DNA of 32,928 bases, from UHGV virus genome UHGV-0143082. One strand, 5' to 3'. The notes under the pieces are model-generated. The model ran no database searches. It had not been told where the DNA came from and saw nothing but the letters and a program-made list of their open reading frames with translations. Position numbers and translations under genes: made by a program. Shown here piece after piece: positions 27,130-32,928 of the stretch (its first letter is position 1; each line of letters begins with the position of its first letter). Source of the DNA: a virus.

Positions 27130-29022
27130 TTAATACTCCGTCACGTTTTCCTGTCGCCACGCCTCGTCATATTCCGATTTCGGCATATTGGCGATGTAGC
27201 TATATGGCGATCCTGATTCAAGTTGCAGGAACTGGTGCGATTGCTCGTCAAGGAACAACGGGACACCACCTTCCCAACCTTCGCCGTTACGTTGTTTTTC
27301 AAGCATCAAAACAGATGCCGGAGATGCCAGTAGCTGTTCGTCCTTCTCTGACATCTTTTCACCACTCTGAACTCTCTGTAACGCTCTCTCGCGAGCCTTG
27401 TTACGCCAGATGATGAAAAGGTTGTCTGTCAGGTCTGTTATCGCTCCAGAGCCTTTTACGTCCATTTTCCCGGTTGGTTTTTCTTCGCTGTCTCCTTTTC
27501 TGGAGTGAGTAACGAGAATGACGTGGGAGTTTGTTTTGTTTTTGAAGTCGCAAATCGAGTCAACAAACGCCTTCTGCCCGTTATAGTCATCGTCGCCTAT
27601 GCCACATTTCATCAGGCTGTCGATGATGAATAACTGGATCCCGTATCGGCGGCGAGCGTAGTCGAATATTTCGATCAGCCTGTCGGCTTTCGCCGTTCCG
27701 GTCAGGCCAAACACCCAAAGTCTTTCGTCATAAAATTTAAATGCAGAGTCAATTTCCAGCACTGGCGGCATCTTGCAGCACGTCGCCTGACGGGTAAGGC
27801 GCTTAAGGAGAATACCAGGCTTCAGCTCAAGTGACGCGATGCACGTCTTCACACCCTGACGCATTGCCTCAAGTGCCATATGCCCGACAACCTCCGTTTT
27901 TCCGTGACCGTTCACACCATTGACCAGCGTCAACTCGGCCTCACGGAACTGGAATTTATCTGCCAGAGATTCCCACGGTGGATTAAACAGATACTGCTGC
28001 TTGCCGTAGAAAGCGTTGATAGTGTCCTGGTAAAACTCTCGCGCGCTGTAGAGTTCTTCAGGATCGAAGTAGGATGCCGTGCCGATGTACTGCCAGATTT
28101 CATCCTCGGTAACACCGTTCATCAGGCATTCGTTGATGTCTTTGTACGGCAGAGTAACAAGACGGCAACGATGTTCACCGAGTCGGCTTGCGATTTCCCT
28201 TGCGGCTTCACGACCAACATCATCAACGTCCATCGAGATGAATATTTCCTCAAACCTGTCGAGGTTGTGATACTCAAACTCAATCCACTGCTGCTTAGCG
28301 CCTTTCCCGCCACCAAACGGTACGGATAACGCCGAGATGCCGTATTGCGCATAGCTCATACAATCAATTTCGCCTTCGCAAAGTACAACCGCCCTCACGC
28401 CAGCGTCCAGAGCCTGCCATCCGAACAGACAAGGTTCGCAATCACCTTCTGCCATAATGACTTTCTTCCCGCCCGGGCGCTCAGTGCTGATTCGCTTTAC
28501 CTGCAACAACTCACCATCGCGTTTGTACGGAAGCACCAGAGCATCCAGTTCTCGCTCTCCATTCCACACCTTGCCGCTGACAACCTCGTAGCGCTTTACG
28601 ACTTCTGGCGATATGCCACGCGATTGCAGGTACTCAAGATGGGATTCTGTTCTGGTAACGTAGCGGGCAATTTTCTTGCGATCAGGTCTGGAGAATTTCT
28701 TCTCACGTCTGGCATCGAAATGGTGATCGTCATCCTTGATACCGAGAAATGCTTTCGCTTCCTGCATAGCCTGATGCAGGTTAATTCCTCGACATGCCAT
28801 CCACAAATCAAGCATGTCACCGCCGTCTCCCTCAGCGAAATCAGCCCATTTTTTCTTGCCGCTAAGGTTGACCTTAAGGCTGTTTCCCTTGTCACCGTTG
28901 ACGTTACCGGCAACCCACTCATGCCCCTCTTTCTTGCCGTTTGGCAACAGGTGCGGAGCCACCCTGTCAACCTGCGCCCAAAGCAGGTCGCTAAGTTCTG
29001 ATGGACTCAAAGGTGCCTCCAT
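27130..29022 (-). CDS. Bifunctional primase-helicase replication protein
   Basis: 630 aa; TOPRIM-like acidic segment (VLCEGEIDCMSY) in the N-terminal half, helicase-like C-terminal half. Confidence 0.75.
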   Translation of the reverse strand: MEAPLSPSELSDLLWAQVDRVAPHLLPNGKKEGHEWVAGNVNGDKGNSLKVNLSGKKKWADFAEGDGGDMLDLWMACRGINLHQAMQEAKAFLGIKDDDHHFDARREKKFSRPDRKKIARYVTRTESHLEYLQSRGISPEVVKRYEVVSGKVWNGERELDALVLPYKRDGELLQVKRISTERPGGKKVIMAEGDCEPCLFGWQALDAGVRAVVLCEGEIDCMSYAQYGISALSVPFGGGKGAKQQWIEFEYHNLDRFEEIFISMDVDDVGREAAREIASRLGEHRCRLVTLPYKDINECLMNGVTEDEIWQYIGTASYFDPEELYSAREFYQDTINAFYGKQQYLFNPPWESLADKFQFREAELTLVNGVNGHGKTEVVGHMALEAMRQGVKTCIASLELKPGILLKRLTRQATCCKMPPVLEIDSAFKFYDERLWVFGLTGTAKADRLIEIFDYARRRYGIQLFIIDSLMKCGIGDDDYNGQKAFVDSICDFKNKTNSHVILVTHSRKGDSEEKPTGKMDVKGSGAITDLTDNLFIIWRNKARERALQRVQSGEKMSEKDEQLLASPASVLMLEKQRNGEGWEGGVPLFLDEQSHQFLQLESGSPYSYIANMPKSEYDEAWRQENVTEY

Positions 29023-29501
29023 GCGTTTCCTCTGCGGATTGTGGAAATTTGCATTTCACTCACTCCGTATTTAGTGGATAGTTCGCTTAGTTTCATACCA
29101 ACAGAATTCCTGATATCAATCACATCAGTTTCAGATAGGTTTGCCCTACCATTAAAAACTCCCTTTGCGCTTTTCAGTCCGATGCTAAAAGCATGTTTTA
29201 AATTCTCTGAGCAGGTACACCATTCCAAGTTCCAAATGGCGTTATCCGATTTGTCGCCGTTGATATGATTTACTTCTGGCTTGCAATACGGATTTGGGAT
29301 AAATAATTGAGCTACAAGACGATGAACTTTTAACGTCTTCTGAATCCCATCGGAACACAAAGTGACTCTTAGATAACCCTTGTTATCCGGAGATGGATTC
29401 AAAAACCTGCCTCTTAAATGTGAATAAACACGACCGTCTTTGGTTACAGAGTATTTACCCTCATAACCAGGTATATATTCTCCAACTTCAAGGCTCATCA
29501 T
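29007..29501 (-). CDS. HNH homing endonuclease (NUMOD4-like N-terminus plus HNH)
   Basis: 164 aa; YEGKYSVTKDGRVYS motif; HNH core VNHINGDKSDNAIWNLEWCTCSENLKHA; AT-rich gene; SD GAGGGA before ATGATG. Confidence 0.75.
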   Translation of the reverse strand: MMSLEVGEYIPGYEGKYSVTKDGRVYSHLRGRFLNPSPDNKGYLRVTLCSDGIQKTLKVHRLVAQLFIPNPYCKPEVNHINGDKSDNAIWNLEWCTCSENLKHAFSIGLKSAKGVFNGRANLSETDVIDIRNSVGMKLSELSTKYGVSEMQISTIRRGNAWRHL

Positions 29502-29608: not shown

Positions 29609-30469
29609 TCACCTGTCGAAAAACACGTAGCCAGTTTTCGATACGGTGATTGCGGATGATGGTTTGGATTGTGGTTGAATAGTTTCTGGCTTCTCGTCGT
29701 TCCAGCGTTGACCGTTCAGGTAGCTCGATGGTAACAACCTGTCGAATCCGAACTGCTTACCATTCCTGCATGCGATGTCTTCTGCCAGCATCGTGGCAAA
29801 CTCGCTTGCCGTACCCCTGGTAGTTTTACGCCATTCCCTGAACTGTGTTCTGAATGCCGAAGCTGCGTTTTTCTTCCCGGCTTTCCGCATGCCTGCACAC
29901 CAGAATATTTCCTCGAATGCCTTGTCGGTTTCTTCGTGACGGTCATGTGATTTTTCACACTCCGTCCGAACACTTTCGGACATAGTGTTTTTATTATTTC
30001 TTTTTTCTTTTGTAATAGTTTCTTTTGTGTGTCCCTGTTTTGGTGACAGCGCTGTCACCGTTTTGGTGACACTTTTTGTCACCAATGCAGTGACATTATC
30101 ACCAGAGTAGTGACACCCTTCTATTTGCCATTCCTCGATGTTCTTGTTAGGCCCGATTTGCTGGCCTTCGCGAAGGATAACCTTCATCGCGATAAGCTCA
30201 TTCTTGGCCTTGTTTACCTTCTGTCTTGGCAGCCTGGTAATTTGAGCTAACTGACTATCAGAGATGCGATCCATCTTTTTACCGTAGCCGTATGTTTTAC
30301 GGCATATGGCGTGGGCAACCTTGCTCTGATTTTTCGTTAAATCTGCGCCGATAAGCTCTTCATACAGGGCATTTGCAAGACGGGTATAACCATCTTCAAC
30401 TTCTGCCACACGACGCTCCACAGGCCGTTGTGAAGGCCTTAAATGTGTTACGGTTGCAAGATTACTCAT
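29609..30469 (-). CDS. Replication initiator, lambda O-like N-terminal domain with divergent C-terminus
   Basis: N-terminal region resembles lambda O ([24 protein letters not shown]...[25 protein letters not shown]...GPNKNIEEW); iterons and AT-rich tract inside the gene. Confidence 0.75.
29981..30120. repeat. Replication origin: four iterons plus adjacent AT-rich tract inside the O-like gene
   Basis: Units GGTGACA-N5-TGTCACC at 30042-30059, 30065-30083, 30087-30103, 30107-30118 with about 22 bp periodicity; AT-rich 29985-30030 downstream in the direction of O transcription. Confidence 0.6.
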
Positions 30470-30608
30470 GACCTTTCTCCTTCTGCATCAGCTTCACTTT
30501 TTCCAACTCAGCCCGGAATCGACCAGGCTGCTTGAAGCTGGACAGGAAGCGATCACGTAGTATGTGTTTGTGAATTTTGTCCTGGTAAGGACTGAGTTGT
30601 TTTGTCAT
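30462..30608 (-). CDS. Small ORF (48 aa) between cII and the O-like gene
   Basis: [48 protein letters not shown]; stop overlaps O start region; below track cutoff. Confidence 0.3.
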
Positions 30609-30640
30609 AATGACTCCTGTGGATTGATCCAGTAATTCCC

Positions 30641-30937
30641 TCAGAATTGCATATCAATTTGCTTAAAATCCTCGGTGGCGGCCGGGGATTTTTTCTTTGT
30701 GATTTCATCAAGCGCATACTTAAAAGCCCTGCTAATCGGACTGATGTCTGATGCCATTCCGAAAGCACACAAGACCGAAGCAATAAATCTCCAGTCCGTT
30801 CTGCTTATCTTCGATTCATGACAGCCAATCATCTTTGCAAGACCGCGCTGGGTAAGCGTTGACAGGTTGATGAGTAAATCAGTTTCAGCGCGATCAATTT
30901 CTCGCTGTGTTGGCTTGCTGTAACTTGTTTGTGTCAT
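30641..30937 (-). CDS. cII: CII-like transcriptional activator
   Basis: 98 aa; HTH region and C-terminus [18 protein letters not shown] resemble lambda CII (KKRPAATERSEQIQMEF). Confidence 0.75.
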
Positions 30938-31058
30938 TTCTTACTATCTCCATAGGTAAATAATTTGGTTTTTTATCGTGCACCATTGACAGTCATCCTT
31001 GACCACGCCGGGCACCCGACCGTATACCGGGCCGTTCGGTACTAAAAGTACATTTTTA

Positions 31059-31289
31059 TTACATAACAAACTGCTGTTTACCGATACGGCGAATCTGTGC
31101 TGCTGAGTACTTGCCGCCTGATGCCTTGGCGATCTTATCCGCATATTCGGTTTCACCAGTGAACTCGGTACGCGGCAGAGAACCACGCTCAAGCCACTTA
31201 TAGATGGCTTTTGGCGTAAGTCCACAAACATCAGCCACAACAGAAACTCGAACGGATTTGATAACTTCTCCAAACGTAACTTCGTTCAT
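31059..31289 (-). CDS. cro: Cro-like repressor (HTH)
   Basis: 76 aa from ATG 31289 with strong SD AGGAGA; HTH segment VADVCGLTPKAIYKWL; divergent from cI. Confidence 0.7.
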   Translation of the reverse strand: MNEVTFGEVIKSVRVSVVADVCGLTPKAIYKWLERGSLPRTEFTGETEYADKIAKASGGKYSAAQIRRIGKQQFVM

Positions 31290-31378
31290 GCTTCTCTCCT
31301 GTGGTGAACTCATGGTTCATATTATGACGGAACTGATAGTACAGTCAATACCTAATATAGTTGAACTTATGGTTCAAC
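31290..31378. promoter_or_regulatory. Immunity operator/promoter region (OR with PR and PRM)
   Basis: Palindromes TGAAC-tcatg-GTTCA (31305-31319) and GTTGAAC-ttatg-GTTCAAC (31360-31378); PR candidate on minus TTGACT-16/17-CATAAT upstream of cro. Confidence 0.6.
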
Positions 31379-32076
31379 AGAAAGAGCGTGAAACTTTCTC
31401 GCAGAGGCTTGCGCTGGCCTGTGATAAAGCGGGATTACCTTTGCATGGTAGGCAGGCTGATTTAGCTGTCAGGCTTAAGGTCACACCAAAAGCCATTAGT
31501 AAATGGTTCAACGGGGAGTCAATACCAAGAAAAGACAAGATGGAATCTCTGGCTTCGGTGCTGGGAACTACTGCTGCATATCTGCATGGCTATGCTGATT
31601 ATGACGGTATCACGGTAAATCATCTATCAAGATCAAATGATTCTTATCGTGTTGATGTATTGGATGTTCAGGCGAGCGCCGGGCCAGGAACCATGGTTTC
31701 CAATGAATTTATAGAAAAGATAAGAGCAATTGAATATACGCCCGAGCAGGCAAGAATTTTATTTAATGGAAGGCCACAGGAAAGCGTAAAAGTCATCACG
31801 GTTCGCGGTGACAGCATGGAGGGAACCATCAATCCGGGAGATGAGATCTTTGTTGATGTATCCATAACCTATTTTGATGGCGATGGCATTTATGTGTTTG
31901 TATACGGGAAAACAATGCACGTTAAGCGCCTGCAAATGCAAAAGAACAGGCTTGCCGTCATCTCTGACAATGCCGCTTATGATCGATGGTACATAGAAGA
32001 AGGTGAAGAAGAGCAACTTCACATTCTAGCCAAAGTACTCATTAGGCAGTCAATCGATTACAAGCGATTCGGATAA
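31369..32076 (+). CDS. cI: CI-type prophage repressor (HTH plus LexA-like S24 peptidase domain)
   Basis: N-terminal HTH (RLALACDKAGL...QADLAVRLKVTPKAISKW); C-terminal autocleavage domain with Ser in VRGDSMEG and Lys in HVKRL; alternative start ATG 31324. Confidence 0.8.
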   Translation: MVQQKERETFSQRLALACDKAGLPLHGRQADLAVRLKVTPKAISKWFNGESIPRKDKMESLASVLGTTAAYLHGYADYDGITVNHLSRSNDSYRVDVLDVQASAGPGTMVSNEFIEKIRAIEYTPEQARILFNGRPQESVKVITVRGDSMEGTINPGDEIFVDVSITYFDGDGIYVFVYGKTMHVKRLQMQKNRLAVISDNAAYDRWYIEEGEEEQLHILAKVLIRQSIDYKRFG

Positions 32077-32093
32077 AAATAAATTTCCTTAAA

Positions 32094-32126
32094 GTTCACT
32101 AACTTATGATGTAGTGAGCTTTTTAT
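32094..32126 (+). terminator. Candidate terminator downstream of cI
   Basis: gttcacta-(9 nt)-tagtgagc imperfect stem followed by TTTTTAT. Confidence 0.4.
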
Positions 32127-32385
32127 ACCCATAAAATGTACTATTGGTACTTTACATTAATGAACTTTAAGTACATCATAAGCCCATAGACGAACGGCGC
32201 GTCTTTAAACCATGCGTCGGGAGCGCGGCGGGTTCAGGATGAACGGCAATGCTGCTCACTACAAAAGAACATTTCCATAACTTGATAGTTATTGAAGTGT
32301 TTTTATATACGGGGTTAGCGATCTCGTGACACAAGCCATTTACGCGGCAGGCTACCGGAAATCAAAACAACTGACAGCGAGGTAA

Positions 32386-32613
32386 GTGATGAATCAGACA
32401 TACATTCCATCATGCTTGAGAAATCTGCCAAAGCAGAAAGCAAAGCCCCGCAAGCAAGCCATAAAGGACGCTAAGGCAGAGGTTATTGATCAAGCAATAC
32501 AATTGCTCAGGGGGGAGTTAAGAAGTGGCAAGCTCGAAGGAATGATGATGCCCTATCAGCGCGGATATCTATCGGCGATTAGTAAGTTGGAAGTATTGAA
32601 GAGTGAATTATGA
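32386..32613 (+). CDS. Hypothetical Lys-rich small protein downstream of cI
   Basis: 75 aa; SD GAGGT upstream of ATG; same strand as cI. Confidence 0.4.
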   Translation: MMNQTYIPSCLRNLPKQKAKPRKQAIKDAKAEVIDQAIQLLRGELRSGKLEGMMMPYQRGYLSAISKLEVLKSEL

Positions 32614-32675
32614 ACTATCTGGAATTTCCGGATGGTTCATTGTTTTGGCAGCAAACCACTTATTTTAGGTGATAT

Positions 32676-32924
32676 ATGGAAGAACAAGCAAACAAGATTC
32701 TCGTAGAACTACTGCAAAAAGCCAGCAATGGAATAGATGCTGCTGTTTCATTTAGCCAAGCACAGATTCCTGATGTTGTTCATCAGTTGCTGCTATGGAA
32801 TATGGTTGACAGTCTGATTAAAACATTAATAGCCATTCTAACAATCCCACTGGTTTTCTGGTTTATGAAGAAGCAGTGCCAAAGAGTTGAGACAGGTAAA
32901 ATCGGTGATGAAGGATACTCATGA
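32676..32924 (+). CDS. Hypothetical small membrane protein
   Basis: 82 aa with C-terminal TM segment LIKTLIAILTIPLVFWFM; complete ORF with stop at 32922-32924. Confidence 0.4.
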   Translation: MEEQANKILVELLQKASNGIDAAVSFSQAQIPDVVHQLLLWNMVDSLIKTLIAILTIPLVFWFMKKQCQRVETGKIGDEGYS

Positions 32925-32928
32925 TAGA

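Follow-up and report, generated by a model that had tools for sequence, protein, structure and literature searches.

The immunity region of phage HK022 was reportedly sequenced in 1989 by Oberto, Weisberg and Gottesman, and is said to have been dissected biochemically in 1993 by Carlson and Little. In phage lambda, the centres of OR2 and OR3 lie 23 bp apart and OR3 sits between the -35 and -10 hexamers of PRM, while OR2 is centred at about -42 and the PR and PRM start points are about 82 bp apart. The lambda cI mRNA has been stated to be leaderless (PMC3342100). For HK022, Hao et al. describe CI binding cooperatively to neighbouring operators within OR and within OL together with OL-OR looping, report, citing Carlson and Little 1993, that CI and Cro bind to the operators, and refer to a further CI operator with a part in immunity, which lies about 300 bp downstream of OR (PMC8053113). 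OL and OR are separated by about 700 bp in HK022 compared with 2.3 kb in lambda, and Hao et al. noted that, to judge by how the operators are arranged, HK022 may employ looping differently at its immunity promoter (PMC8053113).

Judged by its sequence, the locus described here is the right operator of an HK022-type immunity region, placed between divergent cro and cI genes in a P22-like E. coli phage. Positions 30900-32261 of the window (the whole 32,928-nt stretch of phage DNA that was analysed) are 99.4% identical over 1362 nt to the HK022 immunity region (X16093, AF069308); the corresponding identities are 99.3% for the HK022/lambda hybrid O276 and 94.8% for HK75. The X16093 annotation was transferred to the window (window coordinate = locus coordinate + 30875), which puts its three oR sites, two oL sites, PR, pL and cI start exactly on window coordinates, and in the HK75 record the equivalent sites are called OFR, oR1-3 and oL1-3 (Table 1). 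The divergent cI product (HTH plus S24 autopeptidase) and cro product (small HTH) are encoded on either side of a short intergenic region of 79 bp (31290-31368), in and around which lie three dyad operators of one consensus, two of them overlapping PR; HK022-type membership follows from the DNA identity together with all of the defining features that can be read in the letters. The interpretation of this segment as the operators of a cI/cro switch, put forward in an earlier sequence-only reading, is borne out by the identity to the HK022 OR, whose sites are annotated as repressor-binding.

Table 1. Features of the immunity region in window coordinates.
Feature	Sequence	Coordinates	Strand	Basis or remark
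pE (establishment promoter)	-10 TACTAT	30919-30947	+	X16093; -35 at 30919-30924, -10 at 30942-30947
putR		30978-31034		O276 annotation
OFR, extra CI operator downstream of cro	GGTACTAAAAGTACA	31039-31053		GWAC-N5-GTWC; HK75 'OFR' at the homologous place
cro, 76 aa		31059-31289	-	PHROG transcriptional repressor; X16093
cro Shine-Dalgarno	GGAGAG	31294-31299	-	read in the sequence
OR1 operator	TGAACTCATGGTTCA	31305-31319		exact consensus; oR site in X16093; oR1 in HK75
PR -10	CATAAT	31321-31326	-	promoter scan; X16093 and O276 annotations
OR2 operator	GGAACTGATAGTACA	31329-31343		exact GWAC-N5-GTWC; annotated in X16093 and, as oR2, in HK75
Putative PRM -35, inside OR2	CTGATA (4/6)	31333-31338	+	inferred position
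PR -35	TTGACT	31343-31348	-	promoter scan; X16093 and O276 annotations
Probable PRM (PM) -10	TATAGT	31356-31361	+	7 nt before the cI ATG; promoter scan; conservation; 'PM-10' label
OR3 operator, core	TGAACTTATGGTTCA	31362-31376		oR site in X16093; oR3 in HK75
cI repressor gene, 235 aa		31369-32076	+	Pfam HTH_3 and Peptidase_S24; PHROG transcriptional repressor; X16093 CDS
OL2 operator	TGTACTATTGGTACT	32137-32151		X16093; HK75; GWAC-N5-GTWC
pL		32151-32179	+	-35 at 32151-32156, -10 at 32174-32179
OL1 operator	TGAACTTTAAGTACA	32161-32175		X16093; GWAC-N5-GTWC; overlaps the pL -10
putL		32195-32257		O276 annotation

HK022 has the same three OR sites, OL1, OL2, OFR, PR, pL, pE, putL, putR, cI start and Cro as the window, and the 99.4% DNA identity runs from cII through putL. 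The two differ in that the module of the window resides in a P22-like genome and carries one private substitution, the C at 31311, which gives the OR1 spacer the sequence TCATG in place of the TTATG of HK022. This spacer is TTATG or other sequences in HK022, HK75, the loci with 100% identical CI and the 10 of 5,426 complete E. coli genomes in which the OR region was found (best match 99.4%), and none of these is an exact match to the window. The cI note in X16093, 'AA 1-208', conflicts with the 708-nt CDS of the same record, which corresponds to 235 aa.

Homology to HK022 stops 4 bp past putL (32261), so that the mosaic joint lies directly after an RNA antiterminator, and HK022 nun is replaced in the window. 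From 32334 onward the sequence matches N or N-like regions of HK620, mEp and Stx phages, and the first open reading frame (32389-32613) belongs to phrog_5305, a family of unknown function. At the putL position, the loci collected as L004-L059 have at least three sequence types (agacgaacggcgcg..., cgaaacaacacagcg... and cagcaggacgc...), all accompanied by HK022-type operators. Outside the HK022-type module, the window is a mosaic of P22-like type, its relatives being CUS-3, phiv205-1, Sf101 and the replication genes of Stx phages. Inside its O-like replication gene (29609-30469, minus strand) is a GTGACA/TGTCAC array (30040-30115) containing two overlapping perfect 19-bp palindromes (30053-30071 and 30065-30083), and by analogy with lambda these repeats resemble the iterons of a replication origin situated within O. 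An HNH endonuclease reading frame of 164 aa (phrog_59; 29007-29501, minus strand) lies between the O-like gene and a 630-aa primase/helicase gene (27130-29022) and may be a homing-endonuclease insertion.

The operators in OR are 15-bp dyad-symmetric sites conforming to the consensus TGWAC-N5-GTWCA, with centre-to-centre spacings of 24 bp between OR1 and OR2 and 33 bp between OR2 and OR3. Exact matches to TGAAC-N5-GTTCA number two in the whole window, OR1 and OR3, where 0.04 are expected from the mean of shuffled sequences, and two matches were reached in 0 of 100 shuffles. These are the two palindromes with the common half-site TGAAC/GTTCA on which the sequence-only reading was built, and they prove to be the sole exact pair in the window. 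The accompanying statement that only two clear sites exist in OR does not stand, as OR2, with the half-sites GGAAC and GTACA, had been missed; this site is annotated in both X16093 and HK75, matches GWAC-N5-GTWC exactly and is nearly invariant among relatives. OR thus carries the usual three operators. With this relaxed pattern the window contains seven exact matches against 1.33 expected, and six of the seven, OFR, OR1-3 (motif starts at 31306, 31330 and 31363), OL2 and OL1, fall inside 1137 nt (31039 to 32174), a clustering with a Poisson P of about 1e-11.

Perfect palindromes of the 7-5-7 type occur four times in the window against about two expected and are therefore not beyond chance by themselves, which is what speaks for regarding the palindromes as chance or AT-rich intergenic symmetry without function. 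The non-random part of the OR palindromes is the common half-site together with the clustering, and the low expectation for both, the retention of the half-sites down to 57% CI identity and the prior characterisation of the HK022 operators leave that explanation a negligible probability. With two mismatches allowed, TGAAC-N5-GTTCA gave 22 matches against 17 expected, which is uninformative; an inverted-repeat search (seed 6, minimum length 10) did not report the operator palindromes because their arms are only 5-7 nt long; and an Rfam scan of 30600-32928 returned sub-threshold chance matches only and no put-RNA family.

CI relatives were collected as one genome per species plus IMG/VR, and removal of duplicates left 29 different HK022-type OR sequences, with CI identities of 57-100%, whose ungapped alignment covers -72 to +21, counted from the A of the cI ATG. 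Throughout this set OR1, OR2 and OR3 keep practically unchanged half-sites, and OR3 is conserved from -7 to +8; variation is found in the 5-nt spacers and in a block of 6-7 nt between the PR -35 and TATAGT. Invariant half-sites with variable spacers make up the pattern that would be expected of operators contacted by protein. In the HK022-type modules of other enterobacterial phages and prophages, namely HK75, Salmonella P22-like phages and Kluyvera, Pantoea and Rahnella prophages, the OR layout is that of the window to the base; these modules diverge from it in CI, down to 55-57% identity, and, in a Rahnella-type group, in the half-sites. Residues of CI that are invariant among the relatives include the Met-Val start, Ala104-Gly105, Ser149 and Lys186.

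PR reads TTGACT-16-CATAAT (10/12 in the promoter scan). OR1 adjoins its -10 hexamer just downstream and lies over the inferred PR start (~31313-31316), while OR2 fills the PR spacer with the PR hexamers on its flanks and also overlaps the putative PRM -35. On the plus strand, the top promoter of the sigma-70-like scan was CTGATA-17-TATAGT (9/12), which would put the -35 of the cI maintenance promoter within OR2, whose centre (31336) is 33 bp from 31369. In the supplement of Hao et al. 2021 a 'PM-10' label is attached to the 21 nt before the HK022 cI ATG in an expression construct (PMC8053113). Among the 29 relatives the positions -13 to -8 read TATnnT (T28, A28, T27, then A16/G12, a variable base and T29), although the T at -8 adjoins the operator and its conservation could partly be operator-related.

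The sequence-only reading had named as -10 hexamer TAATAT at 31354-31359, which is one position off; 31354-31359 reads AATATA, and TAATAT occupies 31353-31358. An OR consisting of two operators, with PRM using TAATAT as its -10, would agree with the two exact palindromes being the strongest matches, and this hexamer matches at 4/6 and would start transcription about 4-5 nt before the AUG. It would, however, leave the annotated and nearly invariant OR2 unaccounted for, its best -35 partner matches at only 2/6, and its first two bases vary freely in the relatives (-16, T15/A9/G5; -15, A14/G5/T10), so that we regard this arrangement as highly improbable compared with a maintenance promoter whose -10 is TATAGT.

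The position of TATAGT bears directly on the nature of the cI message, which is probably leaderless or preceded by a leader of at most 1-2 nt. The start codon is ATG in 29/29 relatives, with GTG or TTG in none, and no Shine-Dalgarno core was found between -22 and -4 of cI in 20 unique upstream sequences, whereas cro is preceded by GGAGAG. An AUG without a Shine-Dalgarno and a conserved -10 hexamer 6-8 nt before it, two of the features of leaderless messages of the lambda cI type, are thus both present. Start-site selection in E. coli prefers a pyrimidine at -1 and a purine at +1; the window has T at -1 and A at +1, and in the relatives the -1 base is T24/C3/G2 and +1 is A in 29/29. In several other CI groups recovered in the same search, an ATG lacking a Shine-Dalgarno likewise follows a -10-like hexamer at a distance of 6-9 nt, and others again have a clear Shine-Dalgarno. 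The prediction of a leaderless cI mRNA made from the sequence alone accordingly remains plausible and gains comparative support from the conserved TATnnT and the ATG without a Shine-Dalgarno, but not by way of TAATAT, whose key bases vary. In the literature searched, which lay outside the primary HK022 papers of 1989-1993, the position at which the HK022 cI mRNA begins is not given.

A leadered cI mRNA in the lysogen, produced either from a PM further upstream or through initiation at an in-frame ATG such as that at 31324, would reduce the palindrome at the start codon to an operator only. The cI reading frame extends upstream without a stop to 31204 and contains further ATGs at 31288, 31312 and 31324, the last of them present in most relatives, and a TATTAT hexamer is found at 31320 on the plus strand. 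ATG 31324 is complementary to the PR -10 hexamer, which explains its conservation, and it is absent in one locus (L057); ATG 31312 is lost in many relatives; and none of the three is preceded by a Shine-Dalgarno. On these grounds we rejected all of them as cI starts. The TATTAT hexamer has a -35 of only 1/6, and a promoter there would lie under OR1 and OR2. Variation upstream of 31369 does not follow codons, whereas the N-terminal Met-Val never changes, and the database CDSs begin at 31369. A leadered message from the maintenance promoter therefore appears unlikely, and a start at or next to the A of the AUG is preferred.

The 19-bp palindrome that the sequence-only reading had reported to hold the cI ATG, GTTGAACTTATGGTTCAAC (31360-31378), is the OR3 core in extended form, and the ATG (31369-31371) does lie at its centre, the midpoint of the core being the A itself. 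A second role for this symmetry could arise in transcripts from pE, which would yield a cI transcript of about 415 nt with a leader: in these the palindrome might also form an RNA hairpin with the AUG at its apex that modulates cI translation. Folding of 31355-31385 predicts a hairpin of 8 bp (-8.4 kcal/mol, z-score -3.8), and it would be gone from an RNA starting at 31369, a leaderless PRM transcript being without the 5' arm. Every DNA palindrome folds as RNA, however, and the G at -9 that makes the outer arm pair occurs in only 15/29 relatives. We consider such a translational role quite improbable, and it would in any case supplement, and not substitute for, the operator function of OR3.

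The sites flanking OR also follow HK022. The operator reported there about 300 bp downstream of OR is the OFR of the window, and the -35 of pE is flanked by TTGC/TTGT repeats. On the OL side, the oL3 annotation of HK75 is the homologue of window positions 32115-32129, while the 53 bp given between OL2 and OL3 in HK022 (PMC8053113) would fit a half-site operator at 32084-32098. Upstream of OL2 the relatives conserve a pair of outward-facing half-sites, AAAGTTCA-N16-TGAACTTT (window 32084-32130), of which the right half-site is degenerate in the window (TGAGC, 32116-32120).

Taken as a whole, an HK022-type OR with three operators, shut-off of PR, a maintenance promoter using TATAGT and autoregulation through OR3 is, in our judgement, very probably the correct account of this locus. 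All three OR sites would be bound by CI and, by analogy, by Cro. Cooperative binding of CI to OR1, on the PR start, and to OR2, in the PR spacer, would shut off PR, as published for HK022 and as the 99.4% identity to that phage leads us to infer here, and PM would fire from TATAGT, with transcription beginning on the A of the cI AUG or no more than 1-2 nt away from it. By analogy with lambda, OR3 on this start point would allow high CI, probably aided by OL-OR looping, to block cI transcription, and in lytic growth Cro on OR3 would shut off PM.

The comparison with lambda shows a common plan with a different geometry. Both have divergent cI and cro, three dyad operators, OR1 and OR2 24 bp apart and overlapping PR, and a cI gene that lacks a Shine-Dalgarno and has a -10 hexamer 6-7 nt ahead of its AUG. 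The operator sequences are unrelated, the cores being 15 bp in the window, and the distance between OR2 and OR3 is 33 bp as opposed to 23 bp, with OR3 centred on the start point and the AUG. The inferred PR and PM starts are about 55 bp apart versus about 82 bp for PR and PRM in lambda, too close together for RNA polymerase to sit on PR and PM simultaneously. Relative to the PM start, OR2 is centred at about -33, over the putative PM -35, and not at about -42 abutting the -35 as in lambda; the positional test for lambda-style positive autoregulation thus failed, and activation of PM by CI at OR2 in the manner of lambda cannot simply be assumed. Alternatively, CI might favour PM by freeing it from competition with PR.

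The centring of OR3 on the A of the cI ATG means that the right half-site is formed by cI codons 1-3 (ATG GTT CAA, Met-Val-Gln). In the Rahnella-type group (a Rahnella locus, L012, and an IMG/VR locus, L063, at about 55% CI identity), the half-sites are TTAAC-N5-GTTAA, and the third operator, TTAACGAATGGTTAA, is centred on the ATG in the same layout, with GATACT 6 nt upstream; where the half-site changes from GTTCA to GTTAA, codon 3 becomes AAA (Lys) instead of CAA (Gln). It is tempting, if still tentative and perhaps somewhat against the odds, to propose that throughout the HK022-like branch a leaderless cI message invariably has its first base at the centre of the third operator, and that the N-terminus and the autoregulatory site co-evolve as one DNA. 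The family-wide ATG-centred OR3 with an SD-less start preceded by TATnnT, and the co-variation of codon 3 with operator specificity, would be mildly original as sequence observations; the region itself holds nothing new, since the HK022 OR is already known and annotated in GenBank.

For this phage, the analysis sets right the number of operators and the choice of -10 hexamer and assigns it to HK022 immunity, so that CI of the HK022 type should repress it and confer immunity. For the family, a conserved ATG-centred OR3 and a start without a Shine-Dalgarno, with TATnnT 7 nt upstream, across 29 diverged relatives provide indirect support for a leaderless cI. If the proposed arrangement is true, its geometry, in which OR2 is centred at -33 and each start point is covered by an operator, would imply a mechanism of autoregulation unlike that of lambda.
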